The notes below the pieces were generated by a model, which searched no databases, was not told the DNA's origin, and saw only the letters and a list, made by a program, of their open reading frames with translations. DNA of 64,000 nucleotides from an uncultured Gemmatimonadales bacterium (GTDB lineage Bacteria; Gemmatimonadota; Gemmatimonadetes; Gemmatimonadales; GWC2-71-9): NCBI GenBank assembly GCA_963796635.1, contig CAWCMH010000001.1, forward strand, positions 2,660,209-2,724,208. The letters are read 5' to 3'. Numbering within the stretch: the first letter of the stretch is position 1; every line of letters starts with the position of its first letter. Positions 3,150 to 35,838 of this stretch are shown piece by piece. The position numbers and the translations under genes are program-made.

Positions 3150-4346
3150 CTACTTTCCGCCGCGCACCACGAACATCGCCACGCCGTGCGGCGGCACCCC
3201 CGCCGTGAGGACGTCGTTGACCGGCTGCTCGAAGTGACTCCACAGGTCACGCGCGACGTAACTGTGCGCGGGCGCCATGGCGAGATCCGCGAGGGTGATC
3301 GACATCGACTTGGCGACGGTATCGAGATTGAGGAACACGATCGCGCGCGAGCCATCGTGCATCGGCTTGGTCCAGATCTCGGTGTGCGCCGCCGAATCGA
3401 CGCGAAACCGCGATCCCTGTTCCCCGCCCCAGTCCTGGTCGACGGCAATGACGTCGGGATTGGTCAGGATGAAGCGCGTCGAATCATCCATGTGCCGCAG
3501 GTCGTTGCCGGCGATCAATGGCGCGTTGAGAATCGCCCAGAGCGAGAAGTGCGCGATGTACTCGTTGAATGTCATGTGCCCGTTGCCGACTTCGAGCATG
3601 TCGGGGTCGTTCCACCCGCCGGGACCGGAATATTTCGCGATCGGCACCTGTTGTTCGAGGTTGTCGATCATCGACTTCCAGTTGTCGCTGATGTCGCCGG
3701 TGGTCCGCCACAACTTGCCGCCCACCGACCGGCCCCACAACCACGGCACGCTGTCGCCCCACTCGCAGAGTGAGAAGACGATCGGCTTCCCTGTGGCCTT
3801 GAGCGCGTTGCCCATCGCCGTGTACCGCTCGATTTCCGGACGGTGCTCGCCATTGCAGTTGTCGTACTTGAGGTAATCGACGCCCCACTCGGCAAACTTC
3901 TTCGCGTCGGCCGCCTCGTGATCGAGCGATGCCGGGTAGCCCGCGCAGGTCTTCACGCCGGCCGATGAATAGATGCCGAGCTTGAGTCCCTTGGCGTGCA
4001 CGTAGTCGGCGACGCCCTTGATGCCCTGGGGGAAGGTGACCGAGTCGGCCTGGAGATTGCCTTGGGCATCGCGTTGCTTCGCCATCCAGCAGTCGTCGAT
4101 GTTGACATAGCGATACCCGGCGTCACGCATGCCGGAACTCACCATGGCGTCGGCGGTCTGCTCGATCAGCGCCGCACTCACGTGACAGCCGAACTTGTTC
4201 CAGCTGTTCCATCCCATCGGGGGCGTGGCGGCGAGCTGTCCGCCGCTCGGCAGCGGGGCCGTGGAGGCGTGGGAGCCGCCACAGGCGGCGAGGAGGGCGA
4301 GGGTGAGGGGTAGGCAGAATCTGTGTTGCATGGCTTCTCCGTTCAT
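3150..4346 (-). CDS. Alpha-galactosidase, glycoside hydrolase family 27, lipoprotein signal
   Basis: PPMGWNSWNKFGCHV, YVNIDDCWM and LKYDNC motifs typical of GH27. N-terminal LTLALLAACGG lipobox. The true start may be the ATG at 4331 (MQHRF). Confidence 0.85.
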   Translation of the reverse strand: MNGEAMQHRFCLPLTLALLAACGGSHASTAPLPSGGQLAATPPMGWNSWNKFGCHVSAALIEQTADAMVSSGMRDAGYRYVNIDDCWMAKQRDAQGNLQADSVTFPQGIKGVADYVHAKGLKLGIYSSAGVKTCAGYPASLDHEAADAKKFAEWGVDYLKYDNCNGEHRPEIERYTAMGNALKATGKPIVFSLCEWGDSVPWLWGRSVGGKLWRTTGDISDNWKSMIDNLEQQVPIAKYSGPGGWNDPDMLEVGNGHMTFNEYIAHFSLWAILNAPLIAGNDLRHMDDSTRFILTNPDVIAVDQDWGGEQGSRFRVDSAAHTEIWTKPMHDGSRAIVFLNLDTVAKSMSITLADLAMAPAHSYVARDLWSHFEQPVNDVLTAGVPPHGVAMFVVRGGK

Positions 4347-4821
4347 GTCATCCCGAGCGCAGCGAGGGATCGCTTTCCGGTCACGGCCGTCACCCGAAGC
4401 AGCGCGAGGGATCGCTTACCAACCGCGCGATCTGTCCCGCGTAATGATGTAACCCAATGCGTTGAAACATGCCAGCCTGCTCGCCCCGGTCGCCTACGAT
4501 GCGGCATGGCCCGGACCTACTTCGTCTACATCCTCGCTGGCCGCACACGCGTGCTCTATGTTGGCGTGACCAACAACGTCGTGCGCCGCGTTCACGAGCA
4601 CCGTGCGGGTGTCGGATCGCGGTTCACGAGACGATATGGGGTACATCAGTTGGTATATGTCGAATCAACCGCGAAAGTTGTCGCTGCTATTCGCCGCGAG
4701 AAGGAGATCAAGGGCTGGACCCGCTCCAAGAAAATGGCGCTGATCGAGAGCGCCAATCCTGGATGGGAGGATGTGATGATCGGCTTGACGGAGAACGATC
4801 CCTCGCTGCGCTCGGGATGAC
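4347..4821 (+). mobile_element. Candidate small mobile unit: GIY-YIG nuclease gene bracketed by inverted copies of the dispersed 25-27 nt repeat
   Basis: Forward repeat gtcatcccgagcgcagcgagggatcgc at 4347-4373, with a degenerate second forward copy at 4389-4415. Reverse copy gatccctcgctgcgctcgggatgac at 4797-4821 contains the nuclease stop codon. Confidence 0.45.
4506..4820 (+). CDS. GIY-YIG nuclease family protein (UPF0213-like)
   Basis: MARTYFVYILAGRTRVLYVGVTNNVVRRVHEHR..GSRFTRRYGV..LVYVE carries the GIY/YIG motifs and conserved Arg/Glu. The last 7 codons (DPSLRSG) are encoded by the repeat. The track ORF from 4323 reads through repeat copies and is an artefact. Confidence 0.85.
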   Translation: MARTYFVYILAGRTRVLYVGVTNNVVRRVHEHRAGVGSRFTRRYGVHQLVYVESTAKVVAAIRREKEIKGWTRSKKMALIESANPGWEDVMIGLTENDPSLRSG

Positions 4822-4862
4822 AGCGGCGGCCGGAGAGCGACCCCGAGCGCAGAAATCCGCGT

Positions 4863-7208
4863 CTATTCGGACCACGTCGTCGCGAGTACCTTCTTGCGAA
4901 GCGCGACGTAGCGCGGATCGCTGTCCATGCTGCGGAGCCACGGCATGTCCCATCCCAGAAAAAGCCGGATTCCGTACGTCTTCATCTGGTACGCCTCGTC
5001 GAGCATCGCCATGGCCTTGTCGCGGTCGCCAACGGCCGCGTACGAAATCGCCAGAAAATCCGGGTCGACCCACTGCCGCCGAGCGCGCGCCTCCATGGCG
5101 TGAATTTCGCGCAGCGCGTCATCGCGCCGACCCATGCGCGCATAGGTCATCACCAGCCCGTAGGACGGCAGATCGGACATCTTCTTGAAGTCCTCGAATG
5201 CCGCCAGCGATTCATCGAGCCGCCCGAGTTCGCGCAATGCATTGCCATCGGTGACATCGATCAGGACAACAGTGGGATCGATCTTCTTCGCGGCGATCTT
5301 CTGGTGCAGCGCCGCCTCGTACTGGCCGTCCCACAGCAATGCCTCGGCGCGCAAATGCGGTCCCAGCGGTGACAGGGGATCGACCTGAATCAGCGAATCC
5401 GCCAGGCCGATTGCCCGCTTGGTGTTTCCCGAAAGAAATGAAAACGTCGCCACCATGAACAGCGCGTCCGGCGAGCCTGGGTTGATGGCCAGACCGCGAT
5501 TCATCTCGGCGATGCCTCGCGGGAAATCCCAGTTGGCCGCAGCCAGCTCAAATCCGTAGATCACGCGTGCTTCAGGTAGCAGTGAGTCGGCGGCCAGCGC
5601 CAGGCGCGCTTGCTGGAGGGCAAGCGTGTGATACTCGTGCGACGGGGCGTAGGTGTCGGCGAGAATGTCGTACGAAAAAGCGAGTCCAGCGCGGGCCTGG
5701 GCATAGCCAGGATCGATGGCGAGCGCCTGCTGAAAGTAGTTCACGGCGCGCGCGAGTCCCGCCGAGTCGACCTTGTTTTTTTCGAATTCGCCGTGCATGA
5801 ACAAGTCGTGCGCCTCGGGGCTTTCGGTGCGCCCGGTCCGCGCGGCCGGCGACAGCGCGACGCGCATCTCGCTCGCGACGGCAGCGGCCACTTCGTCCTG
5901 CAGCGCGAAGTTGTCCTTCATCTCGCGGTCGAACTTCTTCGACCAGAGCAGCTTGCCCGATGCGTCGTTCAGCTGCATCTGCAGCCGGATGGCATTGCCC
6001 TGCGACTGCAGCGTGCCGCTCACCAGCATGCCGACGTGCAACTGGGAGGCGATGTCGTTCGGTGCAAGCCGAGTATGCTTGAACCGTGACGTGCTCAAGT
6101 CGCCGACCACCTCAAGTCCCGGGGTCTGCCGCAAGTTGCTGGCGAGTTCGCTGGTCATGCCGTCGGCCAGGTACTCCTTGGCTGAATCGCCGCCCGCGTT
6201 CTCGATCGGCAGCACGGCGAGCGATCGCGCCAGCGTGTGCGATGCTCCGGCTGACGGCCGTTTCACGATCATCACAGTCGCAATCGCGGCGATAGCAACC
6301 GCCGCTGCGTACCACGGCCAGCGCACACGACGGCGATTCGGCGGGGAGAAGGCAGCCGCTCCGCTCACTGGAACGCTATCCAGTGCGCGAGCAACATCCT
6401 CGGCGTGTTGCGGACGACGGTCGGGATCCTTCTCCAGGCACTGCGTCACCACGGCCGCGAGGGTTGGCGGCGTGTCGGCCCGCACGTCGCCGATCGGCAC
6501 CGGCGTCTCGGTCAACTGGGCGGCCATGACCCGCTGCAAATTGTCGCGAACGAATGGCGGTGTTCCCGCGAGTAGTTCGTAGGCCATGCACCCGAGGGAA
6601 TAGATGTCCGCGCGCTGATCGATGTGCGGATCACCCGCCGCTTGCTCAGGAGCCATGTAGGCGGCGGTCCCGATCGACATGCCGGTCTGGGTGAGATTCG
6701 CCGCCTCGCCGTGGGTGCGCGCGGCGCTGATCGCCTTGGCGATGCCGAAATCGGTCACGACAGCCGCTCCGGCCGACAGCAGCACGTTGTCGGGCTTGAT
6801 GTCGCGATGCACGACCCCGTGCTGGTGCGCGTAACTCAATGCTCGCGAGACATCACGAAGGACGTTGACCACGTCCGCAACTGGTAACGGGCCCTGCGCG
6901 AGGTGATGCCGCAACGATTCGCCGTCGACGAACGGCATGGTGAAATAGGGCAGACCATCGATGTCGCCGGCTGCCAGCACTGGGACAATGTTGGCCTGAT
7001 TCAGCGACGCCGCGAGCTGGATCTCGCGCTCGAAGCGCTCGAGCGACAACCCCTGGGCCAGCTCCGGCGACACGACCTTGATCACCACCTTCCGGTGCAG
7101 CCGCGTTTCCTCGGCGACGTAGACCCGCGACATGCCGCCGCCGCCGAGTTCACGGTCGATGACGTACTGGCCCGAGAGCGACACGCGGAGTTGCTCGAGG
7201 TGATCCAT
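4863..7208 (-). CDS. Ser/Thr protein kinase with C-terminal TPR-like repeats
   Basis: GGGGMSRVYVAEE..K (ATP site), HRDIKPDN, DFG and APE motifs. One predicted TM segment (WYAAAVAIAAIATVMIV), then a TPR-like helical region. ATG at 7208 (MDHLEQL) is preferred over the ATG at 7274. Confidence 0.85.
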   Translation of the reverse strand: MDHLEQLRVSLSGQYVIDRELGGGGMSRVYVAEETRLHRKVVIKVVSPELAQGLSLERFEREIQLAASLNQANIVPVLAAGDIDGLPYFTMPFVDGESLRHHLAQGPLPVADVVNVLRDVSRALSYAHQHGVVHRDIKPDNVLLSAGAAVVTDFGIAKAISAARTHGEAANLTQTGMSIGTAAYMAPEQAAGDPHIDQRADIYSLGCMAYELLAGTPPFVRDNLQRVMAAQLTETPVPIGDVRADTPPTLAAVVTQCLEKDPDRRPQHAEDVARALDSVPVSGAAAFSPPNRRRVRWPWYAAAVAIAAIATVMIVKRPSAGASHTLARSLAVLPIENAGGDSAKEYLADGMTSELASNLRQTPGLEVVGDLSTSRFKHTRLAPNDIASQLHVGMLVSGTLQSQGNAIRLQMQLNDASGKLLWSKKFDREMKDNFALQDEVAAAVASEMRVALSPAARTGRTESPEAHDLFMHGEFEKNKVDSAGLARAVNYFQQALAIDPGYAQARAGLAFSYDILADTYAPSHEYHTLALQQARLALAADSLLPEARVIYGFELAAANWDFPRGIAEMNRGLAINPGSPDALFMVATFSFLSGNTKRAIGLADSLIQVDPLSPLGPHLRAEALLWDGQYEAALHQKIAAKKIDPTVVLIDVTDGNALRELGRLDESLAAFEDFKKMSDLPSYGLVMTYARMGRRDDALREIHAMEARARRQWVDPDFLAISYAAVGDRDKAMAMLDEAYQMKTYGIRLFLGWDMPWLRSMDSDPRYVALRKKVLATTWSE

Positions 7209-7398
7209 GGATGCCGCTAATGGTACCTGTGGAGTGGCAGCGGGGCGAATCCGCCGTGCGAGAAGGTTGACCATACTGAATGCACGGCCTGTACCCCAGA
7301 CCCCGACTTCTGCCGCTTCCCCCGCGGTGACCTGTTTCGCCCCAGGAATACGCTTTTAGGGGTGACTCGTATTGCCGCCACCCGTTTCGGGAGATCCC

Positions 7399-11709: not shown

Positions 11710-11760
11710 CGTGGCTCCTGTGTGAACGCCGGCGCGGCCAAGGCCGCGGCTCGGCCGTGC

Positions 11761-12040
11761 GAAGCGTCATGAATGACGCTGTCGATCCCAGCCCGCAGGG
11801 CTTCGCGGTGCCGAGCCGTCACTTCAGTGACGCCGGCATGAACGGCCATCCCCCGCGAAGCGTCATGAATGACGCTGTCGATCCCAGCCCGCAGGGCTTC
11901 GCGGTGCCGAGCCGTCACTTCAGTGACGCCGGCATGAACGGCCATCCCTCGCGAAGCGTCATGAATGACGCTGTCCATCCCAGCCCGCAGGGCTTCGCGG
12001 TGCCGAGCCGTCACGTCAGTGACGCCGGCATCGAAAGCTC
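11761..12040. repeat. Tandem repeat, 96 bp x about 3, each unit built from two short palindromes
   Basis: Unit starts (gaagcgtcatgaatgacgct...) at 11761, 11857 and 11953. Each unit holds agcgtcatgaatgacgct and cgtcacttcagtgacg palindromes. Intergenic between the ABC ATPase stop and the start of the 9913-11709 gene. Confidence 0.9.
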
Positions 12041-13548
12041 ACGCCGCCTCGAGCCCCGCCATCAACCGCAGCAGCGCATCCTGGCTCGCCATCTCGCGCG
12101 ACATCTGGCCCACAAGCCGGCCGTCGCGCAGCACGAGAATTCGATGCGACAGTGCCAGCAATTCCGGCAGCTCGCTCGAAATGAGCAGCACCGCCGCGCC
12201 ATCGTCGGCCAGGCGCGCGATCCACGCATGCAACTCGGCTTTCGCGCCTACATCGACGCCGCGCGTCGGCTCGTCGAGCAGCAACACGCTGCTTTCGGCC
12301 GCGAGCCACTTGGCAAGAACGATCTTCTGCTGGTTCCCCCCCGACAGCGTCAGGGTCGGAGTTTCCAGGACGGACGCGCGCGCTTGGGCGCCTTCGGCAC
12401 TGCGAGTCGCCACATCGCGTTCGGCAGTGCGATCGATCCACCCCTGATGGGCCACGCGATCGAGCACCGGCAGCGTGATGTTTTCGCGCGATCGCATGCC
12501 GAGCACCAGGCCTTGCCGCTTGCGATCTTCGGGCACCAGCCCGATGCCGTGCGCGAGCGCATCGCGGGGTGACGCGAGTGCGACCGGCTCGCCGCGCACG
12601 CTGACGCTGCCCGTCGACCTGTGAATCGAGGCCGAACAACGCCTGCGCCAGCTCGGAGCGCCCGGCGCCGGTCAGCCCCGCGACGCCAAGAATTTCGCCC
12701 GCGTGCAACGTGAACGACACGTCGCGAAAACGGCCCGGACTGGTGAGGTGGTCGACGCGCAGCACGGGTTTCGCGTGATCGGCGACCTGGACGGGCGCGG
12801 CCTCGTAGTGCTGCACGTCGCGCCCGATCATGCGCTGCACGATGGTCGGCTCGTCGACGAGCGACACCGGGTCAGTCGAGACATGACGCCCGTCGCGCAG
12901 CACGGTGACGTGATCGCAGAGCCGGAAGATCTCCGGCATCCGGTGCGAGATGTAGAGCAGCGTCACGCCGCGCGCGCGCAGCTGCGCCATCAGTGCGAAC
13001 AGCTGATCCGCCTCGCGCTCGCCGAGTGAGCTGGTGGGTTCGTCGAAGATGATCACCCGGGCCCCGCTGCCGATCGCGGCGGCGATCTGCACCAGCTGCT
13101 GCTGGGCGACGCTCAGTGTCTCCACCCGGCGCGCCGGGTCGATTTCGGCCCCGATCGACACGAGCAACGCACGCGCCTGTTCGCGCAATTGCGCGCGGTC
13201 GAGGAATCCGCCGTGCCGTGGTAGATGACCCAGGAACAGATTCTCGGCGACCGACAGGTTGTCGCAGAAGGCAAGTTCCTGGTGCACCATGGCGATGCCC
13301 GCGACCAGCGCATCGCGCGGCTCGCCGAACTCGACCGCCTCGCCGTGCAGAATGATTCGCCCGGCATCGGGCCGCATGATGCCGGCAAGGATGCGGCTGA
13401 GCGTGCTCTTGCCGGCGCCGTTCTCACCGCAGATCGCGTGGCACGATCCGGCCGCGACCTCGAACGACACCGCCGTCAGCGCCGCCACGCCGGGAAAGCG
13501 CTTGGTGATCGCGTCGAACCGGACGGCGGGAACGGGCGGCTCCGTCAC
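12039..13548 (-). pseudogene. Sugar (ribose/xylose-type) ABC transporter ATP-binding protein, two ATPase domains, interrupted by a 1-nt frameshift
   Basis: The N-terminal frame (13548 downwards) reads GENGAGKSTL..LSVAQQQLV..IIFDEPTSSL..GLTGAGRSELAQALFGLDS, then turns into Arg-rich nonsense. The second half (VSVRGEPVAL..LVPEDRKRQG..LSGGNQQK..LLLDEPTRGVD) continues in the +1 frame (track ORF 12039-12599). Confidence 0.75.
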
Positions 13549-13555
13549 TGAGTGC

Positions 13556-13720
13556 GATCCCTCGCCCTGCTGCGCACGGCTCGGGATGACCGGCGGTGCT
13601 GAGGCGAGAGATCCTCGTCGTGCTGCGCACGGCTCGGGATGACCGGCGGTGCTGAGGCGAGAGATCCCTCGTCGTGCTGCGCACGGCTCGGGATGACCGG
13701 CGCACTGGTGCGCCGGTCAT
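13556..13720. repeat. Tandem repeat, 53-54 bp x 3, variant of the dispersed palindromic repeat, ending in a perfect palindrome
   Basis: gatcc(c)tcg..ctgcgcacggctcgggatgaccggcggtgctgaggcgaga units start at 13556, 13610 and 13663. The terminal atgaccggcgcactggtgcgccggtcat overlaps the binding-protein stop codon. Lies inside the ABC operon. Confidence 0.85.
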
Positions 13721-14715
13721 TGCGGCAGCGCGAGATAGGTCGAATCGACGTCGGTGAATCCCCACGACTTGAGCTGCCGGGCCCAGATACCAAGGTTGTC
13801 CTTCGACACCCGGATCAGGTCCATCTGCACATGCGCCGGCACCGCCTGCTTGAGGTACACATGATCGATGATGGTGCGCACCGACACGCTGCCCCAGAGG
13901 TACACCGGCTGGGCGAGCAGCACCGGCGCGAGGCCCTTGGCGACATACGCGAGTTCGGCGGGCAGCGCGTCGACAGCGACGATCTTGACCTTGTTCGGAT
14001 TGAGGTCGCCCAGCAGCGCATCGGTGAACAGCGGCCAGCCGCCGATCATCGCCCACCCCTGGATGTTCGGATTCGCGTTCTGCGCCCGCAACACTTCGGC
14101 GGCGGCGTCCTGCGGCGTCTCCGGATGATTGAACACGCCGATGATGTGGATGCCGGGATACTTGGCCGCCTCATCCTTCACCCCTTGCACGCGCTTCTGC
14201 AGGTTGGTGGCGTTCTGGTTGCCGGCCAGGATCGCGACGTTGCCACTGTCGTGCATCTGGGCGGCAAGTTCCGACATCACCTGCGCGCCGATCGCATGAT
14301 CGTCGCCACCGTAGAACGCGAATCGCTTCGAGTCGGGCGCGTCGCTGTCGAACATCATGACCGGCACGCCGCGGTTGACGGCGTCGTTGATCGCACCGGT
14401 CACCTTGCCGGCGTCGCTCGCCGACATCAGGATGGCATTGTCGCCCGCGTTGACCGCCTGCTCGATGCGTTGCGCCTGCACCTGACCATCTTCCGTCGGC
14501 GGCGTGAGCCAGTCGATCACGATGGTGATGCCGAGCGAATCGCCCAGCTGCTTGGCCATGGCCTCGGCGCCGGTGCGCGCCGCGAGAAACACCGGATTGG
14601 TCGAACTCTTGGCGATCATGCCGATGCGGAAGGTCTTGCTGCCATTACTGGCACCCTTGCTGCACGCGGCCAGCGCCACGAGTCCAACGATTGCGAACGC
14701 ACGTTGACGAGTCAC
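13717..14715 (-). CDS. Sugar ABC transporter substrate-binding lipoprotein (RbsB-like periplasmic binding protein)
   Basis: MTRQRAFAIVGLVALAACSKG lipobox. Periplasmic-binding-protein type I pattern (FRIGMIAKSSTNPVF...GVPVMMFDSD...). Confidence 0.85.
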   Translation of the reverse strand: MTRQRAFAIVGLVALAACSKGASNGSKTFRIGMIAKSSTNPVFLAARTGAEAMAKQLGDSLGITIVIDWLTPPTEDGQVQAQRIEQAVNAGDNAILMSASDAGKVTGAINDAVNRGVPVMMFDSDAPDSKRFAFYGGDDHAIGAQVMSELAAQMHDSGNVAILAGNQNATNLQKRVQGVKDEAAKYPGIHIIGVFNHPETPQDAAAEVLRAQNANPNIQGWAMIGGWPLFTDALLGDLNPNKVKIVAVDALPAELAYVAKGLAPVLLAQPVYLWGSVSVRTIIDHVYLKQAVPAHVQMDLIRVSKDNLGIWARQLKSWGFTDVDSTYLALPQ

Positions 14716-14738
14716 GTGGATCTCCAGTTGAGGTGTGT

Positions 14739-14841
14739 GTCATCCCGAGGAAGCGTAGCGACCGAGGGATCGCTGTCACCCGGGCCGATCCCTCGCTGCG
14801 CTCGGGATGACATGCTGCGCGAGCGCTTCGCTCAGGATGAC
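14739..14841. repeat. Cluster of dispersed palindromic repeat copies (one forward, one reverse, one degenerate reverse)
   Basis: gtcatcccgaggaagcgtagcgaccgagggatcgc (14739-14773), gatccctcgctgcgctcgggatgac (14787-14811) and gagcgcttcgctcaggatgac (about 14821-14841), between the permease and binding-protein genes. Confidence 0.85.
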
Positions 14842-15962
14842 ACTGCTGTCCGCGCCAGCCGCTTCGCCAGCAATTTGCGTCCACTCTGATCGAGCACCAC
14901 AGCCAGGATCATCGCCGATCCGATGATGATCCATTCGTAATTCTGGTCCAGGTGCAGCGTCCGGATGGCCTGGCGGATCAGCACGATCAGCAGCGCGCCA
15001 AGCATCGCACTGAGCGCGCTGCCGCGGCCGCCGGTGAGCGACGCGCCGCCGACCACGGCCGAGGCGATCACGTACAACTCGTAACCGGTGCCGTCCGACG
15101 ACGTCGCGGAGCCGTAAAAGCCGGCCCCGAGAAACGCGGCGATGCCCGCAGTCAAGCCGGACCAGATGAAGACGCCGAGTTCGATACGCTTGACATTGAG
15201 TCCCGAAAAGCGGCTCGCTTCGGCGTTGCCGCCCACCGCAAAGATATGCCGACCCATCACCGTTCGAGTCAGGTAGATCGCGCCGACGACGGTCACCAGG
15301 ATCATCCCCAGCAATGGCACGGGCGACAGGGTCTTGCCGAGTCCGAGCGACGCCTTGGCGAAATTCGTCAACGACATCGGCACGAGAATGCTCTCGGCGT
15401 TGCTGATGACGAACGCCAGGCCGCGCAGGATCCACATCGTGCCCAGCGTGATGATGAAGGAATGCACGCCGAGACCGACCGTCATGACACCGTTGGCGAG
15501 GCCGCACAGCAACGACACCGCCATGCACACGCCCAGTCCGGTGACGACCGTAAGCACCGGGTTCATCGGGCCAAGGGCGCGCAGGGTCAGCGCCATCACG
15601 ACGCCCGCCAGGGCGTACACCGACCCGACCGACAGGTCGATGCCGCCCGCGATGATCACCATGGTGGCGCCGACGCCCATGATCGCGAACGTGCTCGCAT
15701 CGGTGGCCATCTGGATCAGCGTGTGCGCGTTGAGAAAGTTGTTGACCGTCCTGCCGGTCAACGCATCGGTGTGCGACCCCGCCACCGCCGTCAGCAGTGC
15801 GCCCATCGCGAGCAGAACGAGCGCCAGCCCCGCCGACTGGGACCGCAGAAACGACCGATGCACGTGCGGAAAGTCCTCGTGGAAGCGGATGCAAGAGTAT
15901 GGCGCGCCGGTGGGACTGTCAATAAAGAAGGCGGCCAGCCGTGAGCCCCCGCCTGTCGCCAC
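14832..15962 (-). CDS. Sugar ABC transporter permease (RbsC/branched-chain type)
   Basis: Multi-TM protein with the pattern IDLSVGSV..GLANG..ITLGTM..GGN.EA.R.SG typical of ribose-type permeases. The likely true start is the GTG at 15863 (VHRSFLRSQ); the upstream extension is uncertain. Confidence 0.85.
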   Translation of the reverse strand: MATGGGSRLAAFFIDSPTGAPYSCIRFHEDFPHVHRSFLRSQSAGLALVLLAMGALLTAVAGSHTDALTGRTVNNFLNAHTLIQMATDASTFAIMGVGATMVIIAGGIDLSVGSVYALAGVVMALTLRALGPMNPVLTVVTGLGVCMAVSLLCGLANGVMTVGLGVHSFIITLGTMWILRGLAFVISNAESILVPMSLTNFAKASLGLGKTLSPVPLLGMILVTVVGAIYLTRTVMGRHIFAVGGNAEASRFSGLNVKRIELGVFIWSGLTAGIAAFLGAGFYGSATSSDGTGYELYVIASAVVGGASLTGGRGSALSAMLGALLIVLIRQAIRTLHLDQNYEWIIIGSAMILAVVLDQSGRKLLAKRLARTAVSS

Positions 15963-16008: not shown

Positions 16009-17463
16009 ATGCCACTGCCCCAATTCACGCCCCCCGCGCCGCCCCCGCCACAGCCACTGCCCCCGGTCACGCTGGGGCTGGTGGTCGGCAACCGCGGCTT
16101 CTTCCCGGGCCATCTGGCCGAGCGGGGGCGTCGCGACATGCTGGCGGCCCTGGAGCAGGCCGGATTCCGGGTGGTGGTCCTCGATGCGGGCGACAGCCGC
16201 CACGGCGCGATTGAATCGCGCGACGAGGCCAAAGCCTGTGCGGCGCTCTTCCGCCAGCATCGCGACGCGATCGCCGGCATTGTCGTCACGCTGCCGAATT
16301 TCGGCGACGAGCGCGGTGTCGCCGAAACCCTCCGCCTCGCCGACCTGCGCGTCCCGGTGCTGATCCACGCCTGGGCCGACACGCCCGACCGGATGCTGAT
16401 CACCGATCGCCGCGATTCCTTCTGCGGCAAGATTTCGGTGTGCAACGTGCTCACGCAATACGGCATCCCGTTCACGCTCACCACGCGGCACACCGACACG
16501 GCCGGCAGCGAGACGTTCCGCGACGATCTCGCCCGGTTCGCGGCCATCTGTCGCGTGGTGCACGGCCTGCGTACCGCCCGGGTCGGCGCGATCGGCGCGC
16601 GGCCGGCCGCGTTCAAGACCGTGCGCTACAGCGAGAAGATCCTCGAAGCGAGCGGGATCGCCGTCGAGCCGATCGACCTGTCGGAGATTCTCGGCCGCAC
16701 CACCCGCATGGCCGACGACGATGCGCGCGCGGTCGCCAAGCTCGCCAGCATCCGCCAGTATGTCCCGACGCAGGGCATTCCCGAGGCGGCGTTGCTCAAG
16801 ATGGCCAAGCTCGGCGCCGTGATCGACGGGTGGATGGTCGAAGCCGATGTCACGATCAGCGCGGTGCAGTGCTGGACGTCGCTGGAGGAGTTCTTCGGCG
16901 TCGTGCCGTGCACGCTGATGAGCATGATGAGCAACGAGTTGTTGCCGAGCGCCTGCGAGGTCGACGTGTGCGGCACCGTCAGCATGTACGCGCTCGCACT
17001 CGCCTCGGGCAGCCCGAGTGCGCTGCTCGACTGGAACAACAATTACGGCGACGATCCCGACAAGGCCGTCTGCTTTCATTGCAGCAACCTGCCGAAGCAT
17101 TTCTTCGAATCGGCGCGGATGGACTACCAGGAGATCATCGCCGGCACGGTCGGCAAGGACAACACCTACGGCACGGTGGTGGGGACGGTGCGCGCCAGCC
17201 CGATGACGTTCGCCCGCTTCTCGACCGACGATCGTGCCGGGCGAATGCGCGGGTACGTGGGCGAGGGGCAATTCACCAGCGATCCGCTGACGACGTTCGG
17301 CGGCGCGGGTGTCGTGGCCATCCCGAATCTGCAACACCTGCTGCACGTCATCTGCCAACAGGGTTTCGAGCACCATGTCGCGGCCAATCTTTCGACAGTC
17401 GCGGCGGCGTTGCACGAGGCCACGACGCGGTACATGGGGTGGGATGTCGTGAGGCACGGGTGA
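16009..17463 (+). CDS. L-fucose/L-arabinose isomerase family protein
   Basis: ATG at 16009 (MPLPQF). The track ORF from 15334 is an antisense extension over the permease gene. LGLVVGNRGFFP, FCGKISVCNVL, MSNELLPSACEVDV and FHCSN segments resemble the FucI-like isomerase family. Confidence 0.75.
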   Translation: MPLPQFTPPAPPPPQPLPPVTLGLVVGNRGFFPGHLAERGRRDMLAALEQAGFRVVVLDAGDSRHGAIESRDEAKACAALFRQHRDAIAGIVVTLPNFGDERGVAETLRLADLRVPVLIHAWADTPDRMLITDRRDSFCGKISVCNVLTQYGIPFTLTTRHTDTAGSETFRDDLARFAAICRVVHGLRTARVGAIGARPAAFKTVRYSEKILEASGIAVEPIDLSEILGRTTRMADDDARAVAKLASIRQYVPTQGIPEAALLKMAKLGAVIDGWMVEADVTISAVQCWTSLEEFFGVVPCTLMSMMSNELLPSACEVDVCGTVSMYALALASGSPSALLDWNNNYGDDPDKAVCFHCSNLPKHFFESARMDYQEIIAGTVGKDNTYGTVVGTVRASPMTFARFSTDDRAGRMRGYVGEGQFTSDPLTTFGGAGVVAIPNLQHLLHVICQQGFEHHVAANLSTVAAALHEATTRYMGWDVVRHG

Positions 17464-17468
17464 GGAGT

Positions 17469-17532
17469 GTCATCCCGAGCGAAGCGAGGGATCGCTTCGT
17501 GACCATGGGATCCCTCGCTTCGCTCGGGATCA
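17469..17532. repeat. Inverted pair of the dispersed repeat forming a long hairpin
   Basis: gtcatcccgagcgaagcgagggatcgc (17469-17495) and ggatccctcgcttcgctcgggatca (17508-17532), separated by about 12 nt. Fills the gap between the isomerase stop (17463) and the araB start (17537). Confidence 0.9.
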
Positions 17533-17536
17533 GTAC

Positions 17537-19117
17537 GTGACCCTCGTCGCCGGCGTCGATTTCGGCACGCAGAGTGTCCGCGTCTCCATTGTCGATCATC
17601 TCGACGGGGTGATCGGATTCGGCGTCGCCGAATATCCCGTGCTGCGCGATCGGGCGGATCCCGACTTCGCCACGCAGGCGCACGACGCGCACATGCATGC
17701 ACTCGTCGACGCGATGCATCTCGCGCTGGCCGACGCCGGGGTCGATGGCCGCACCGTTCGCGCCATCGCGCTCGACACCACCGGATCGACCGTGATCCCC
17801 GTGGGCGCCGGTCTGCGTCCACTCAACGACTATTACCTGTGGTGTGATCACCGCGCCGCCACAGAGGCCGCGCGCATCACGGCATGCGCCCGCGAGCAGG
17901 ATCTGCCGGCGATCCGCGCGTGCGGCGGCGTGTATTCGTCGGAGTGGGGGTTTGCCAAGCTGCTGCACTGGCTCCGGCAGCATCCCGAGTTGCGCGGCGA
18001 GTTCGTCACCGCGCTGGAGCACTGCGACATGGTGGCGGCCGTGCTGTGCGGCATCAGCGACCCGGCCGACCTGCCGCGCAGCGTCTGCGCCATGGGACAC
18101 AAGTGGCTCTGGCGCGCCGCCGCCGGCGGACTGCCGTCCGACGAGTTCCTCACCAGCGTGGATCCGGCGCTCGCCGGCGTGCGCGACCGGATGCAGGGGC
18201 GGTATCACACGTCCGACGTCATCGCCGGCCACCTGACGCCTGCGTGGGCCGAGCGGCTGGGCCTGTCTCCCGGCATTCCGATTCCCGTCGGGGCGTTCGA
18301 CGCGCACTGGGATGCGGTCGGTGCCGGGATCGCCGAGGGTGACGTGGTCAACGTGATCGGCACGGCCACCTGCATCATGGCCATCGCGCGCGCGACGCCC
18401 GATATCCCCGGGCTCTGCGGCATTGTCCCCGGGTCGATTCATCCGGAATTCGTGGGCATCGAAGCGGGATTGTCGGCCACGGGATATCTGTTCGAGGCCA
18501 TCGCCCGGCGCGCCGGCGTGGCACCCAGCGAACTCGCCGCACAAGTACAAGAGCATCGCGCCGGGGAAACCGGACTGCTGCGGCTCACCTGGGACAACGG
18601 CGACCGCACCGTCCTGGTCAACCCGGCACTCGGTGGCGTGACACTCGGCTGGAATCTCAATCACACCGCCGCCGACGAACTGTTCGCGGCGATCGAAGGC
18701 ACCGCACTGCACACGCGGATCATCATCGATCGCATGCGCGAGTACGGTGTGCCGGTGCGACGGATGATTCATGCCGGGGGCATCCCGCAGAAGAACGAGG
18801 CGCTCAACCGCGTCTACGCCAGCGTGCTCAACACGCCGGTGCTCGTGCCCGAGCGTCCCATCACATCGCTGGGCTCGGCCATCTTCGCATGCGTCGCCGC
18901 CGGACTGCACCCGACCATCGAAGCCGCGCAGGCGGCACTCTGCCCGCCCTATCGCGAGGTGCCGCCCGACCCCGCAGCCGTCGCGGTCTATGACCGTCTG
19001 TACGGCCTCTATCGCTCGCTGTATTTCGCGCTGGGAGCAACCGGATCCGCGCCGATCGAACTGGGTGGCATATTGCCGACGTTACGCGAGATCGCCGCCA
19101 CTGCGCGTAACCGCTAG
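17537..19117 (+). CDS. araB: Ribulokinase (FGGY carbohydrate kinase family)
   Basis: GTG start. VAGVDFGTQSVRV N-terminal FGGY motif. C-terminal HAGGIPQKNEALNRVYASVLNTPV as in AraB. Adjacent to araD. Confidence 0.8.
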   Translation: MTLVAGVDFGTQSVRVSIVDHLDGVIGFGVAEYPVLRDRADPDFATQAHDAHMHALVDAMHLALADAGVDGRTVRAIALDTTGSTVIPVGAGLRPLNDYYLWCDHRAATEAARITACAREQDLPAIRACGGVYSSEWGFAKLLHWLRQHPELRGEFVTALEHCDMVAAVLCGISDPADLPRSVCAMGHKWLWRAAAGGLPSDEFLTSVDPALAGVRDRMQGRYHTSDVIAGHLTPAWAERLGLSPGIPIPVGAFDAHWDAVGAGIAEGDVVNVIGTATCIMAIARATPDIPGLCGIVPGSIHPEFVGIEAGLSATGYLFEAIARRAGVAPSELAAQVQEHRAGETGLLRLTWDNGDRTVLVNPALGGVTLGWNLNHTAADELFAAIEGTALHTRIIIDRMREYGVPVRRMIHAGGIPQKNEALNRVYASVLNTPVLVPERPITSLGSAIFACVAAGLHPTIEAAQAALCPPYREVPPDPAAVAVYDRLYGLYRSLYFALGATGSAPIELGGILPTLREIAATARNR

Positions 19118-19128
19118 TCCGCGCGGTC

Positions 19129-19815
19129 CTACTGTCCGTAGGTGGCGGCCTCGCCGTGCTTGCGCTGGTAGTGCCGATCGTGCAACGCCGGGGAGATCGC
19201 GCCGACGTCGCGATTGAGCGTCACGGTGTGGTAGGCCATCCGCGCGATCTCTTCCAGCATTGATGCCGTCTCCAGCGCCAGCTGCACCGACCTGCCCCAG
19301 CAGAACGGCGCGTGGCCAGTGACCAGCACCGCCGGCACCTGCATCGGATCGATGCCCGCAAACCGCTCGACAATGGCGTGCCCGGTGTTGGCTTCGTATT
19401 CGCCCGCAATCGCTTCGTCCGTCATTGGTCGCGTCACCGGCACGGGCCCGGCAAAGTGATCTGCGTGGGTGGTGCCCAGGCACGGCATGTCGCGACCGCA
19501 CTGGGCCCACGCCGTCGCGAAATGTGAATGTGTGTGCACCACCCCGCCGATCGCGGGGAACGCGCGATACAAGGCGAGGTGCGTCGGGAGATCCGACGAC
19601 GGCCGCAGCGTTCCCTCGACCACCTTCCCGTCGAGATCGGTAATCACCAGCATGTCGGCCGCGATCTGGCTGTATGGCACCCCGCTCGGCTTGATCACCA
19701 CCATCCCCGTCTCGCGATCGATGGCGCTCGCGTTGCCGAACGTGAATGGCGCCAACCCGCGGCGCACCAGCTCCTGGTTGGTATGCATGATGTCGCGGCG
19801 CAGGTTGCTCAACAT
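19129..19815 (-). CDS. araD: L-ribulose-5-phosphate 4-epimerase
   Basis: FGNASAIDRETGMVVIKPSGVPY, HTHSHFATAWAQ and class II aldolase/adducin fold motifs. Confidence 0.85.
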   Translation of the reverse strand: MLSNLRRDIMHTNQELVRRGLAPFTFGNASAIDRETGMVVIKPSGVPYSQIAADMLVITDLDGKVVEGTLRPSSDLPTHLALYRAFPAIGGVVHTHSHFATAWAQCGRDMPCLGTTHADHFAGPVPVTRPMTDEAIAGEYEANTGHAIVERFAGIDPMQVPAVLVTGHAPFCWGRSVQLALETASMLEEIARMAYHTVTLNRDVGAISPALHDRHYQRKHGEAATYGQ

Positions 19816-19821
19816 GGGCGG

Positions 19822-21030
19822 TTATTTCTCCACGCCAAAGGCAAAGACGGTGAACGCCCGGAACTCATGATTCGGCCGCAGGATGGTCGACGGAAAGCTG
19901 GCATGATTCGGCGAATCGGGGAAATGCTGGGTCTCCAGCGCCAGGCCGCCGCGGAAGCCGTACACCTTGCCGCCCTTCCCCACGATGGTGCTGTCGAGAA
20001 AGTTGCCGGTGTAGAACTGCAAGCCCGGTTGGGTGGTCGAGACGGTCAGCACGCGCCCGCTCCCGGGGTCGACCACGCGCGCCGCAAGCACCGTGTCGGC
20101 ACCGTGCTTGTGATTGAGGACGAAGTTGTGGTCGTAGCCGTTGGCGTACTTGAGCTGGGTATTGTGCTCGGCGATCCGGGCGCCGATCACCGTCGGCGTG
20201 CGGAAGTCGAGCGGCGTCCCCGCCACCGGCGCGAGCGCGCCGGTCGGGATCAGGGTCGAGTCGACCGGGGTGTAGCGATCGGCGTTGATCATGAGGGTGT
20301 CGCCGAGAATGTCGCCGTGCCCCTCGCCCGCGAGGTTGAAATACGAGTGCTGCGAGATGTTGAATGGCGTCGCCGCAGTCGCGGTCGCCATGTACGTGAT
20401 CTCCAGCGCGTTCGCGGGGGTCAGCGCATAGGTGACGCCCACCGCCACTGCGCCGGGATAACCCTGATCGCCGTCGGGGCTCAGGTGTGACAGCGTCACG
20501 CCGACCGTGCTGTCGCGATGAAACGAGTCGGCTTGCCAGACGACCTTGTCGAATCCCTGCACGCCGCCGTGAAGCGCGTTGGGGCCGTTGTTGGTCGCCA
20601 GCTGATAGGTCTTGCCGTCAAGCGTGAAGCGGCCCTTGGCAATCCGGTTGGCGTACCGCCCGACCACCGCGCCGAAGTACGGCACGTTGTGCAGATACCC
20701 CGCCAGCGAGTCATAACCCAGGACGACATCGCCGAACTGGCCGTTGCGATCGGGCACCTTGATCGACTGAATGATCCCGCCGTACGTGATCACCCGCACC
20801 TGCATGCCGTGCGGATTGGTCAGCGTGTACACGTGGATCGAATCACCACTCGGCATCACACCGAACGGCGCTTCGACAATCGATCCCAAAGGCGGCGTGG
20901 CAGACATGACGCTGGTGCTTTCGGCCGGAGCCTGGCTCGTGGTGGGGGGAGGTGCGCTGCGGTGACAGGCGCTGGCAGCAAGCGCTGCCAGCGCGCCGAG
21001 CGCGGCGGAACGAACAGTGCGTGTGGTCAT
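19822..21030 (-). CDS. galM: Aldose 1-epimerase (galactose mutarotase), secreted
   Basis: Signal peptide. GPNALHGGVQGFDKVVW, YPG...VTY, ISQHSYFNL and ETQHFPDSPN motifs of the mutarotase family. Confidence 0.85.
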   Translation of the reverse strand: MTTRTVRSAALGALAALAASACHRSAPPPTTSQAPAESTSVMSATPPLGSIVEAPFGVMPSGDSIHVYTLTNPHGMQVRVITYGGIIQSIKVPDRNGQFGDVVLGYDSLAGYLHNVPYFGAVVGRYANRIAKGRFTLDGKTYQLATNNGPNALHGGVQGFDKVVWQADSFHRDSTVGVTLSHLSPDGDQGYPGAVAVGVTYALTPANALEITYMATATAATPFNISQHSYFNLAGEGHGDILGDTLMINADRYTPVDSTLIPTGALAPVAGTPLDFRTPTVIGARIAEHNTQLKYANGYDHNFVLNHKHGADTVLAARVVDPGSGRVLTVSTTQPGLQFYTGNFLDSTIVGKGGKVYGFRGGLALETQHFPDSPNHASFPSTILRPNHEFRAFTVFAFGVEK

Positions 21031-28889: not shown

Positions 28890-28924
28890 GAAGCGACTCG
28901 ACCGCGCGGGTGTCGTACCGGTCC

Positions 28925-29068
28925 CTCGATCACCGTCTCCGCCGGTCGCGCCGGTGTTGCCAAGCGACGCACGAGCCGGCGCGTGACGCGAATGCCTTCG
29001 GCGCGGCACCACGCCATCACGTCGCGCGCAATGGCACGCTGCGACAGCGTGGCGGCGGCGTCCGGCAT
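28925..29068 (-). pseudogene. 3'-truncated third copy of the 95-aa module gene
   Basis: MPDAAATLSQRAIARDVMAWCRAEGIRVTRRLVRRLATPARPAETVIE matches the first half of the 95-aa proteins at 31472-31759 and 33663-33950. Homology stops near 28925, about 35 nt from the aldo/keto reductase stop, and the frame then runs into antisense of that gene. Confidence 0.6.
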
Positions 29069-29784
29069 GCATCACGTCCCGTACACGCTTGCGCGGTGTC
29101 GCGCAGGGCATACGTCGGCGGCTCGTCGGGGCCGTGATACTGCACGACCCCATTCCGCCGCAGCGCTTCCGATTCCCCGTCCGCCTCGGCGCGCACGCGC
29201 GCGAGATACGGATCAACCCACGGGCCGGTGTACCGCGGCACTGTGACGGGATCATTGCGACGCGGTGGTGACACTGGCGGCTCCGGTCCCCACGGATACT
29301 GCAGCGGCGCGTGTGGCCGCCGCCAACTCGATGGCACCGAGCGCCGCAAGGGGGGCCGGCCCCAGCCGGGGAGCTCGAGACCAGTGGCGAGGCGGTGCGC
29401 GTCGGGTGTCTTCGCTGTCGCGCTCGGCGCGGAGTGTTCGACCGGATCCTTCGGTCGCCGCCGCCCGATGCGGAAGCCCACCGCGCCGGTTTCCAGTGCC
29501 AGATGCAGCGTACGCAGCTGCTTCAGGACCTTGGCCAGCGCGTCGACATCCAGATGTGCATACGCCGCGACGCCGTCCCGCTCCAGGGCCGCGCCCACCT
29601 GCTGCGCGGCCCAGGTCGCGGGGAGGGCTTCCACCAACCGCGCTGCGCCCGCGTGTGCAACTGCCAGGCACGAGTGAGGCGGGCGGGGTCGTGATTGTTG
29701 GTCATCGCAAATCCCGTGTCTAATCCCGAACGGCGCGGATGTCGCCGTTCGGGTAGCTTGATCTGGTTCCGCTACGCTGGCCAC
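29017..29784 (-). CDS. PGWGRP-motif module protein, paralog 1 (probably degenerating)
   Basis: The C-terminal GLELPGWGRPPLRRSVPSSWRRPHAPLQYPWGPEPPVSPPRRNDPVTVPRYTGPWVDPYLARVRAEADGESEALRRNGVVQYHGPDEPPTYALRD is conserved with the other two paralogs. Where the paralogs have a stop codon (TAA in the 33983 copy) this copy has CAA, giving a read-through tail. A paralog-like N-terminus (MTNNHDPARL, from 29705) sits in another frame. Confidence 0.45.
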   Translation of the reverse strand: MASVAEPDQATRTATSAPFGIRHGICDDQQSRPRPPHSCLAVAHAGAARLVEALPATWAAQQVGAALERDGVAAYAHLDVDALAKVLKQLRTLHLALETGAVGFRIGRRRPKDPVEHSAPSATAKTPDAHRLATGLELPGWGRPPLRRSVPSSWRRPHAPLQYPWGPEPPVSPPRRNDPVTVPRYTGPWVDPYLARVRAEADGESEALRRNGVVQYHGPDEPPTYALRDTAQACTGRDACRTPPPRCRSVPLRAT

Positions 29785-29805
29785 ATGGCTGCGCCGCCAC
29801 GCTGT

Positions 29806-30327
29806 TCAGTCCCACAGCAGCAGCAACGAACTGCTTGCGAGTGGATCGCCGTGTTGATCGAACAGGGTAATTCGGACGCCGGTGGGTGCCTTCACGTCGG
29901 GTACGGCGTACCGAGCGAATAACGCTCCTGGCGACAATACCGCTACGACGTACCCACCAGCCCAACGGGCCAGATTCTCAATGGACAAGGTGCGCTCGCT
30001 GACGGTGACGTAGCTCCCGGGACGGTTATCGCCACCGCCCCCTGCTTCCTTCGGGATAGGCGAAACGAATACCTCTTCACGAACTCTACCAACGAATCGG
30101 CTTGGTAATCCGAACGCAGCTACCTGGACAGTATCCGAATCATCGTTTTGCGACCATTCCGAATCGGGTGGCGGGTTGACCTCGTGTTGCCCTAGGAGCA
30201 GTCGAGGAAAAAACTGCACCATAACGTGTTCCGGATAACCGGCCCGCGATCCAATCGGTGCGCGTGTGCGTTCACAGGACGCTCCGCTAGACACGCAGGC
30301 GATGAGCAAGAGGATGCGATATTTCAT
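29806..30327 (-). CDS. Lipoprotein, putative immunity protein for the orphan LAS/M15-like toxin
   Basis: MKYRILLLIACVSSG lipobox. Its ATG overlaps the toxin stop (ATGA at 30324-30327). Visibly more A/T-rich than the flanks. Confidence 0.6.
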   Translation of the reverse strand: MKYRILLLIACVSSGASCERTRAPIGSRAGYPEHVMVQFFPRLLLGQHEVNPPPDSEWSQNDDSDTVQVAAFGLPSRFVGRVREEVFVSPIPKEAGGGGDNRPGSYVTVSERTLSIENLARWAGGYVVAVLSPGALFARYAVPDVKAPTGVRITLFDQHGDPLASSSLLLLWD

Positions 30328-31475: not shown

Positions 31476-31759
31476 CCCGTCTCGATCACCCGCGCGATGG
31501 CCGCCACTACCTGCACGACGTCACCCGCCTGGTACGACCACGTCGCTGTCCGATGCGGCATCCGCACCTCGACATGCTCCGTGTACACGGCGACCACGGT
31601 GTCATCGAGTTCCAGTTCGATCACCGTCTCCGCGGGCCGCACCGGCGCCGCCAGTCGACGCACGAGCCGGCACGTGACGCCAATCCCCTCGGCCCGGCAC
31701 CACGCCATCACATCGCGCGCGATGGCGCGCTGCGACAACGTGGCGGCGTCGTCCAGCAT
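31472..31759 (-). CDS. 95-aa module protein (unknown function), copy A
   Basis: High GC3. Differs from the copy at 33663-33950 at only a few residues. Its stop overlaps the orphan rhs GTG start (GTGA). Confidence 0.65.
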   Translation of the reverse strand: MLDDAATLSQRAIARDVMAWCRAEGIGVTCRLVRRLAAPVRPAETVIELELDDTVVAVYTEHVEVRMPHRTATWSYQAGDVVQVVAAIARVIETG

Positions 31760-31779
31760 GCATCAAGTGCCGCGCACGC

Positions 31780-32824: not shown

Positions 32825-32832
32825 GGCAACCT

Positions 32833-33950: not shown

Positions 33951-33982
33951 GCATCACGTCCCGTGCACTGACCAGGTGCGTC

Positions 33983-34845: not shown

Positions 34846-34857
34846 GTTCTCAACTCC

Positions 34858-35828: not shown

Positions 35829-35838
35829 GTGCTTTCTC

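Follow-up and report, generated by a model that had tools for sequence, protein, structure and literature searches.

Inverted hairpin repeats bracket a minimal SLX1-like GIY-YIG nuclease gene in a Gemmatimonadales genome and in bacteria of many phyla: a candidate partnership of the REP/RAYT type

In this work, a 64,000-nucleotide stretch of contig CAWCMH010000001.1 from an uncultured Gemmatimonadales bacterium (the window), an affiliation with which the names of the closest homologues agree, was analyzed, in which a gene for a 104-residue GIY-YIG nuclease is bracketed by inverted copies of a short, dispersed palindromic repeat. The same oriented association of gene and repeat recurs in bacteria of more than ten phyla, and at the sites compared the repeats come and go, while the gene behaves as a long-term resident of its site. 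We favor, with a probability of roughly 55%, a partnership that resembles the one between repetitive extragenic palindromes (REPs) and the REP-associated tyrosine transposases (RAYTs), in which a GIY-YIG nuclease rather than a Y1 transposase is tied to the hairpin repeats. An initial annotation, made from the letters of the window, had already set this locus apart from RAYT-linked REPs, and that contrast is apt; the gene flanked by the repeats encodes a GIY-YIG and not a Y1 protein.

The repeat-gene-repeat unit nearly fills a 516-bp spacer bounded by an alpha-galactosidase gene and a Ser/Thr kinase-TPR gene (Table 1). The sequence GTCATCCCGAGCGCAGCGAGGGATC is found exactly at 4347 on the forward strand and at 4797 on the reverse strand, so that the bracketing described in the initial annotation holds at its coordinates, and it has nine matches with three or fewer mismatches in the window, compared with 0.00 expected from shuffles. 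Each of the two inverted arms, 4346-4379 and 4789-4822, spans 34 nt, and they are 94% complementary. The TGTCAT head of the upstream unit faces outward, away from the GIY-YIG gene; the inner flank of this unit, GCTTTCCG(GTCACG), is common to the copies at 46381 and 46421, and the 33-nt stretch here is 100% identical to 46383-46415 and 46423-46455 (direct repeat family D9). The GIY-YIG open reading frame (ORF) begins with the ATG at 4506, not 4507, and its last seven codons and TGA stop (GAT CCC TCG CTG CGC TCG GGA TGA, encoding DPSLRSG) lie wholly within the inverted copy, as had been proposed. The degenerate second upstream unit is not detected by the covariance model described below at E<=1, and an intact unit stands at the matching place in a relative (locus L092). 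The possible decayed partial unit next to the kinase gene was detected by no search tool. Read from the sequence, the outer ends carry no target-site duplication (flanks gttca/TGTCAT and ATGACA/gcggc). An insertion sequence or transposon was considered and rejected: inverted ends are present, but a target-site duplication is lacking and the sole gene is the GIY-YIG nuclease gene. A sigma-70 promoter scan of 4200-4950 found nothing, and the 64-kb window holds one copy only of the GIY-YIG gene.

The unit has the consensus (T)GTC-AT-xyz-GA-GC-GNA-GC-GA-z'y'x'-AT-C, with a core of 25 nt and a whole length of roughly 25-40 nt, and forms an imperfect palindrome composed of a 5-bp stem, tandem G.A and then a GC-GNA-GC tip, beside which the (T)GTCAT head is single-stranded. 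In the 51 units of many species from which a covariance model was built, the positions G3, T4, C5, A6 and T7 are invariant. For a test of the stem, units were defined by the head and interior alone, leaving the stem triplets unconstrained. The (T)GTCAT head is present in all 95 core-defined units, which come from 32 sources, and the stems are fully Watson-Crick in 95 of 95, while shuffled partners gave 25 on average and 40 at most; six stem types were seen (TCT, CCC, CCT, TCC, GTT and TTC). Because every one of these stems pairs across species, the hairpin is under selection, with the stem letters free provided that they pair. The GTCAT head and the GA/GNA interior are conserved, while the stem letters vary between lineages. 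The heptamer d(GCGNAGC) is well known to form a DNA mini-hairpin of unusual stability, and by this analogy the GCGNAGC tip points to a probable DNA rather than RNA structure. Among Rfam 15 families, RNase P RNA is the only match in the window at the gathering score, and nothing meaningful appears in 4200-4950 even at E<=10.

With the covariance model, 13 units were located in the 64-kb window, grouped at five intergenic sites that all lie between ORFs with Pfam domains; the earlier report of further intergenic copies and of a variant form (at 13554-13699) is thereby confirmed. The unit is thus, like a REP, a short imperfect palindrome that is extragenic and multi-copy. Units are seen singly, as heads-outward inverted doublets, and in tandem or alternating arrays. 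The doublets at 14737/14785, 17467/17507 and 46421/46524 have the form of a REPIN (a pair of inverted REPs). The three variant units constitute direct repeat family D12, with a period of 53 nt, and lie between ABC ATPase and sugar-binding protein genes, and the units at 46381 and 46421 are spaced 40 nt apart. Two unit sites separate the cistrons of a sugar ABC-transporter operon (permease, binding protein and ATPase; 12016-15962), and another follows dnaN directly. A position between the cistrons of transporter operons is classic for the REP elements and bacterial interspersed mosaic elements (BIMEs) of Escherichia coli, and by this analogy the units might affect mRNA stability differentially. 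Three tandem 96-nt copies (99% and 89% identical; family D6) at the ABC ATPase gene's 3' end (11759-12046) each hold two other palindromes, GCGTCATGAATGACGC and CCGTCACTTCAGTGACGG; with their GTCA heads, these look like another family of hairpin repeats in this genome.

The association of gene and repeat was studied at 80 homologue loci from species-representative genomes (46-62% identity), obtained with a 13-sequence alignment and spanning Gemmatimonadota, Acidobacteriota, Chloroflexota, Cyanobacteria, Verrucomicrobiota, Planctomycetota, Clostridia, the candidate phyla radiation (CPR), Bacteroidota and several proteobacterial classes. By a strict pattern, a correctly oriented unit is present at 61 of the 80 loci, on both sides at 34 and on neither at 19; a forward unit lies within 300 nt upstream at 48 loci, and an inverted unit lies at or past the 3' end at 47. 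With covariance-model matches added, at least one correctly oriented unit is found at 65 loci and a unit in any orientation at 69. The initial annotation had named the absence of flanking repeats from other GIY-YIG homologues as an outcome that would refute it, and this is not what the 61-65 correctly flanked loci exhibit. Unit density in the 300 nt upstream of the gene is 2.93/kb in forward and 1.23/kb in inverted orientation, and at the 3' end it is 2.5/kb inverted and 1.48/kb forward, compared with a background of 0.05/kb per strand (1.03 Mb, at least 900 nt from the gene), so that gene-adjacent density is approximately 50-60 times background. Typically, about 12% of a genome is intergenic, and the excess beside the gene is still several-fold if all background units are placed in that fraction. 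The nearest upstream unit is forward at 40 of 55 loci and the nearest downstream unit inverted at 40 of 54; the stop codon lies inside the repeat at 15 of the 80 loci, as in the window, and the distance between unit and gene varies from locus to locus. As a control for spacers that follow a gene, dnaN loci of related metagenomic genomes were inspected, and a unit was present in the first 400 nt downstream at only two of 76.

The same polarity can be read from protein ends. A word-indexed search yielded 460 homologues at E<=1e-3; a C-terminal DPSLRSG, or a variant of it, recurs in many homologues of 52-81% identity, and some over-extended homologue ORFs start with VIPSAARD or VILSAAKDL, which is translated repeat. 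In an index-free search the family extended to 26,533 cluster representatives (50% identity) at E<=1e-3 and to 9,527 at E<=1e-10. Among the 150 best of these representatives, repeat-derived peptides stand at the ORF ends of 34, with 22 inverted versus 3 forward at the C-terminus and 9 forward versus 3 inverted at the N-terminus. The recurrent pseudo-peptides VIPSAARD, VILSAAKDL, HPERSEGS, DPSLRSG and DPSHPLGMT, produced by read-through of repeats, inflate protein predictions, and the ORFs over-extended in this way include P0008, P0034, P0040, P0043, P0062, P0081, P0097, P0109 and others. Cultured examples with units on both sides of the gene are provided by Planktothrix agardhii plasmid p1 and Spirosoma oryzicola. 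On the P. agardhii plasmid (L296, record 17350-20622), the GIY-YIG gene, with repeat arrays on both sides, has an MmeI-type restriction-modification gene as one neighbor and the DISARM helicase gene drmA as the other, and is for that reason placed inside a defense island.

The turnover of the repeats can be followed at the dnaN site. The window has four units after dnaN, whereas L216 (88% DnaN identity) and L217 (83%), which are its nearest relatives by dnaN and have the same order from dnaN to an M28-peptidase gene, have none, and the more distant L218 and L219 (77%) have one doublet; the presence/absence polymorphism anticipated in the initial annotation is therefore observed, as presence or absence only, since the spacers of L216 and L217 are too diverged for base-by-base alignment. 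Where the window has units, the dnaN-M28 spacer of L217 (1084-1330) contains a long inverted repeat of low complexity, made up of a G-rich run (gggagagggg...) and the complementary C-rich run. The gene itself is more stable. In L092, the nearest relative in which this locus is present and whose alpha-galactosidase is 90% identical, the repeat-gene unit occupies the same place between kinase and alpha-galactosidase genes; the GIY-YIG gene (5526-5821) is split over two reading frames, with pieces 82-83% identical to P0002 and the flanking units kept, and represents either a recent pseudogene with a real frameshift or an assembly indel. In L094 (alpha-galactosidase 72% identical), a GIY-YIG gene encoding a protein 56% identical to that of the window lies directly upstream of, and divergent from, the alpha-galactosidase gene, with a different neighbor on the other side, and in L093 (83%) neither gene nor units are present and the neighbor differs. 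The flanking units and one dispersed unit of L094 are all of the CCT/AGG type, versus CCC/GGG for all units of the window, which indicates that the units within one genome change together. A further homologue, P0036, occupies one locus across ten metagenome samples. In one of these ten samples the same unit and downstream genes are preceded by a methyltransferase gene instead of DprA (L088 versus L083); the breakpoint is ~85 nt upstream of the unit and not at the repeat edge, and so does not bear on rearrangement at the unit boundary.

Dispersed units are found without the gene. At least 120 IMG/VR contigs contain the unit pattern, and 80 IMG/VR loci (775 kb), with 97 units, are entirely free of GIY-YIG homologues; therefore the nuclease, if it serves the repeats, would work in trans. 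Isolated pairs of opposite orientation in this sample are heads-outward in 31 cases and heads-inward in 8. Since this polarity is the same as that of the gene-bearing unit, the doublet resembles such a unit minus its gene or, conversely, the unit resembles a doublet with a gene in its spacer. In an Acidobacteriota assembly (L066, 8530-10380), three near-identical copies of the complete hairpin-gene-hairpin unit follow one another in tandem with a period of ~600-745 nt, an arrangement that could have arisen via unequal exchange between flanking units. Subtypes differ between paralogues: in a Chloroflexota assembly with two paralogues (66% identical), one gene (L012) is flanked on both sides by CCT units and the other (L014) by TCC units. 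Proteins sharing a stem class are 58.4% alike versus 54.9% otherwise, a difference reached in 0 of 2000 permutations but confounded by host relatedness and GC content. In the long arrays that flank the gene on either side at L009 and L034 (TCC+/TTC-), L043 (TCT+/CCT-) and L015, units of one subtype alternate with oppositely oriented units of another.

The protein matches Pfam family PF01541 with E = 4.7e-13 (49.7 bits versus a cut-off of 22.6), and this is the only Pfam domain in its 104 residues. The residues Y8 (YFVYIL), Y18 and G20 (Y18-V-G20), R28, H32 and E65, which correspond to the GIY-YIG catalytic positions, are invariant in 37 homologues, and conservation extends to a C-terminal stretch, K69..W71..R73..K76..N84-P85-x-W87-x-D89-L90. 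With a profile built from 13 homologues, matches were obtained to the UPF0213 structures BH0048 (1zg2, E = 3.2e-11) and EF2693 (1ywl, E = 3.7e-7), and the AlphaFold (AF2) model, with a pLDDT of 90.4, is ranked by Foldseek closest to 1zg2, then to Slx1 in Slx1-Slx4 complexes (6seh, 4xlg and 7cq3) and then to the UvrC N-terminal domain (1yd6). From sequence and model, the protein is predicted to be a minimal SLX1-like (UPF0213) structure-specific nuclease with intact catalytic residues. Dunin-Horkawicz et al. described a "non-eukaryotic Slx1" group of stand-alone minimal domains with no assigned role and mentioned no repeat association for stand-alone Slx1-like proteins (PMC1564403); since profile, fold and conserved residues agree, the protein belongs in this group. 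It has no match in NCBIfam, PHROGs or PADLOC (the last at E<=0.01), and assignment to a defense system or phage family was discarded for that reason. Homologues occur in only 32 of 72,556 plasmid records, mostly megaplasmids.

In the partnership that we favor, the nuclease would recognize the hairpin, in extruded or single-stranded form, plus the GTCAT head and nick there, acting in trans on unit copies genome-wide, and host replication or repair would then duplicate, delete or convert units; the gene-less doublets would be the non-autonomous form. The anatomy agrees at every point with the REP/REPIN-RAYT pattern: the repeat is a hairpin with a conserved head and a free stem, occurs in doublets and mosaic arrays, is uniform within a genome, and has both a resident flanked gene and dispersed gene-less copies. 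A scheme of nicking followed by host repair would account for unit turnover and within-genome uniformity. The data demonstrate the anatomy, the oriented association in many phyla, selection on the hairpin, turnover of the repeats, stability of the gene, and an SLX1-like fold whose catalytic residues are intact; we infer the binding of the units by the putative partner, their cleavage and its strand and site, their mobilization, and the role of this enzyme as the driver of their spread.

A number of points weigh against this partnership. To our knowledge, GIY-YIG enzymes hydrolyze DNA and are not known for strand transfer, and therefore the copying must fall to host processes. The association was measured locus by locus, and 11-19 of the 80 homologues lack a detectable or correctly oriented unit. 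Two different unit subtypes are combined in 10 of 27 bracketing pairs. A Y1 transposase or some other mobilizing enzyme may exist elsewhere in these genomes; no other gene family has a peak of unit density in 1.19 Mb, but Y1 genes elsewhere were not searched for systematically. The predicted nearest-neighbor folding energy of single units is no better than that of shuffled sequence, and the hairpin claim is based on cross-species covariation, not on folding energy. In the full-text literature, with most subscription journals outside it, no link of GIY-YIG or UPF0213 proteins with REP-like repeats was found. Finally, a ~125-nt mosaic element stands on either side (1296-1428 and 1795-1925) of the Sinorhizobium meliloti homologue (L297). 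Its two opposed palindromes read TCAT-CCC...GGG-ATC and TCAT-TCC...GGA-AT, a likeness to the unit that speaks for the partnership, but the two elements are in direct and not inverted order. This element, present at no fewer than 1313 places in 139 rhizobial replicons, differs from the unit of the window in its palindrome interior (TGTG...CACA) and is not recognized by the covariance model; it may be one of the Rhizobium-specific intergenic mosaic elements (RIMEs) described in the 1990s.

The initial annotation had gone further and proposed a nuclease-driven mobile or homing unit whose ends seed the dispersed copies. The oriented and recurrent link between gene and repeat and the matching polarity of the doublets (31 versus 8) sustain its nuclease-centered part, but not a cassette that is currently mobile or homing, and the seeding of dispersed copies by its ends found no support. 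We consider it unlikely that the ~475-bp unit is itself an autonomous cassette of this type, in which the nuclease would cut an uninterrupted doublet and repair would copy the gene into the spacer, the solo units and doublets being targets or internally deleted derivatives. Such a cassette agrees with the terminal inverted repeat architecture, with the heads-outward polarity shared by gene-less doublets (31:8), with the tandem triplication of the whole unit in L066 and with the occurrence of GIY-YIG domains in free-standing homing endonucleases (PMC1564403); moreover, other-phylum homologues (58-62%) are as close to the window protein as the same-site Gemmatimonadales one (56%), which would fit horizontal spread or re-invasion. 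However, a target-site duplication and a fixed element length are both lacking, unit-gene distances vary, a single copy is present in the window, and the flank subtypes differ in the 10 of 27 pairs noted above, while the position beside the alpha-galactosidase gene is kept at 90% and 72% identity and P0036 stays at one locus in ten samples. The protein, moreover, is a bare 104-residue SLX1-like domain with no DNA-binding module or other second domain and no PHROG family, found in a chromosomal context, and only 32 of 72,556 plasmids have a homologue.

Even less likely, in our estimation, is that the units are independent REP-like repeats spread by another enzyme or kept for a host use such as mRNA 3'-end protection, termination or nucleoid-protein binding, with the GIY-YIG gene as a favored landing site or as a host nuclease policing hairpin or cruciform DNA. 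Sites between ABC-transporter cistrons and after dnaN do resemble E. coli REP/BIME positions, GIY-YIG genes are distant from most units (0 of 97 near one), and the resolution of branched DNA is an activity of SLX1-type enzymes (as described for PDB 6seh and 4xlg), but a landing bias would need to have arisen repeatedly, in more than ten phyla, with identical polarity on both sides of one particular 300-bp gene; paralogues of the same genome each have their own unit subtype, and the density peak is peculiar to this one gene family in the 1.19 Mb covered. The lowest probability is assigned to an action of the units as RNA, in which the GIY-YIG protein would bind or cut transcribed hairpins and so regulate its own and other mRNAs, the two flanking copies pairing in the transcript and enclosing the ORF. 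Consistent with this, Dunin-Horkawicz et al. suggested a role in RNA metabolism on the ground that one prokaryotic Slx1-like domain is fused to an RNA methyltransferase (PMC1564403). For the transcript 4340-4865, a long duplex between the two ends is predicted (z = -4.7), although any inverted repeat gives such pairing automatically; the first unit is sense-oriented after dnaN, the binding-protein gene and the permease gene, but at the 3' end of the GIY-YIG gene itself the unit is antisense, and the mRNA therefore carries the weaker complement. No Rfam family matches, the GCGNAGC tip is known for exceptional stability in DNA and not in RNA, and every characterized GIY-YIG enzyme that we know of cuts DNA.

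The coordinates of the features are collected in Table 1. Elsewhere in the window, the region 28900-40626 includes a gene on the reverse strand (35839-40626) for an RHS-repeat protein with an M23 peptidase domain; after it come 300-nt repeats at 30774, 33271 and 36304, which are 100% identical, and related segments that are 83-93% identical. The ORFs in the repeated part of this region have no Pfam match, and the region resembles an Rhs toxin locus with orphan tip cassettes. Because of the position of dnaN, the replication origin region is probably nearby. Two copies of a 49-nt tandem repeat (51373-51470, D20) adjoin the RNase P RNA gene.

Table 1. Coordinates of the genes, repeat units and RNA discussed, in window positions
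Feature	Position	Strand	Basis and remarks
Alpha-galactosidase gene	3150-4346	-	Pfam scan
Upstream hairpin unit	4345-4373	+	Exact pattern match; covariance model 44.3 bits, E = 2.6e-9
Degenerate second upstream unit	4389-4420	+	78% identical to 4347-4378
GIY-YIG nuclease gene, 104 aa, UPF0213 / prokaryotic SLX1-like	4506-4820	+	Pfam PF01541
Downstream inverted hairpin unit	4795-4823	-	Exact match; covariance model 44.7 bits; inverted repeat I2
Possible decayed partial unit, gaccccgagcgcagaaatc	4835-4860	+	By-eye reading, weak; between downstream unit and kinase gene end
Ser/Thr kinase-TPR gene	4863-7274	-	Pfam scan
Three tandem long-loop variant units (GTCATCCCGAGCCGTGCGCAGCA..GGGATC)	13554-13699	-	Covariance model 27.9, 17.2 and 26.7 bits
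Heads-outward doublet	14737-14773 and 14785-14813	+ and -	Covariance model; between binding-protein and permease genes
Decayed copy beside the 14737-14813 doublet	14815-14841		
Heads-outward doublet, 11-nt spacer	17467-17495 and 17507-17533	+ and -	Covariance model 45.1 and 32.6 bits; between divergent genes
dnaN	45210-46328		
Cluster right after dnaN	46337-46552	three + and one -	Covariance model; forward units at 46337, 46381 and 46421, inverted unit at 46524-46552
Bacterial RNase P RNA class A	50962-51334	-	265 bits (Rfam)

The results point to an apparently undescribed partnership between GIY-YIG proteins and hairpin repeats, in which both the class of enzyme and the repeat family, which is very widely distributed, are new. 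More tentatively, and with odds that we place slightly below even, they may delineate a pan-bacterial REP/REPIN-like class with a (T)GTCAT head and a GA-GCGNAGC-GA interior, including TCAT-headed variants and possibly the rhizobial mosaics, that has a cognate SLX1-like GIY-YIG enzyme. If true, this would be a second, mechanistically distinct (hydrolytic, non-HUH) way to carry and propagate extragenic palindromes, and would fill a gap, as many bacterial genomes hold such palindromes without a RAYT. It would also be the first functional assignment for the large group of "GIY-YIG nuclease family protein" entries (26,533 cluster representatives); stand-alone SLX1-like GIY-YIG proteins are among the most widespread uncharacterized small nucleases, and the proposal offers them a concrete substrate, the 104-residue protein and 25-nt hairpin forming a very simple system for biochemistry and structure. 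For genome annotation, read-through of the repeat yields spurious ORF extensions (DPSLRSG, VIPSAARD, HPERSEG) in many predicted proteins.

Compared with known systems, integron attC sites, the ends of DDE-type miniature inverted-repeat transposable elements and IS200/IS605 ends were considered as identities for the units and discarded, as each unit is itself a covarying hairpin, the flanking units are inverted rather than direct, and no such transposase is present at the loci. The closest likeness is to REP/REPIN elements and their RAYTs (PMC3116915, PMC3337134 and PMC2817692): short imperfect palindromes with a conserved head beside a variable stem, extragenic, multi-copy, arranged in inverted doublets and uniform within a genome, with a partner gene that is apparently stably placed and repeat-flanked. 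The RAYT, however, is a Y1 (HUH) transposase that forms a covalent intermediate, whereas the gene flanked here encodes a hydrolytic GIY-YIG nuclease. The head is (T)GTCAT rather than the terminal GTAG or CGTC given for the classical REP (PMC3733652), the interior is a GA-flanked GCGNAGC mini-hairpin, and the family occurs in many phyla and not in Proteobacteria only. Enterobacterial BIMEs share the alternation of opposed subtypes (as in L009, L034, L043 and L015) and the sites between transporter-operon cistrons, but constitute a different sequence family. With the free-standing GIY-YIG homing endonucleases (I-TevI, Seg and Mob), the locus has in common the catalytic domain and the form of a small, selfish-looking gene between host genes; in contrast to them, the protein lacks NUMOD or other DNA-binding domains, belongs to the SLX1 rather than the UvrC/homing lineage and has no PHROG match, and its gene is positionally stable. 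UPF0213 proteins (BH0048, 1zg2; EF2693, 1ywl) and eukaryotic Slx1 share its domain, fold and catalytic residues, and the prokaryotic Slx1 family its minimal size and absence of an auxiliary domain (PMC1564403). Unlike eukaryotic Slx1, it has neither an Slx4 partner nor a RING domain, and within UPF0213/Slx1 the subfamily described here is distinguished by the conserved C-terminal helix region KGW.R..K..LIE..NP.W.DL and by its tie to hairpin repeats.

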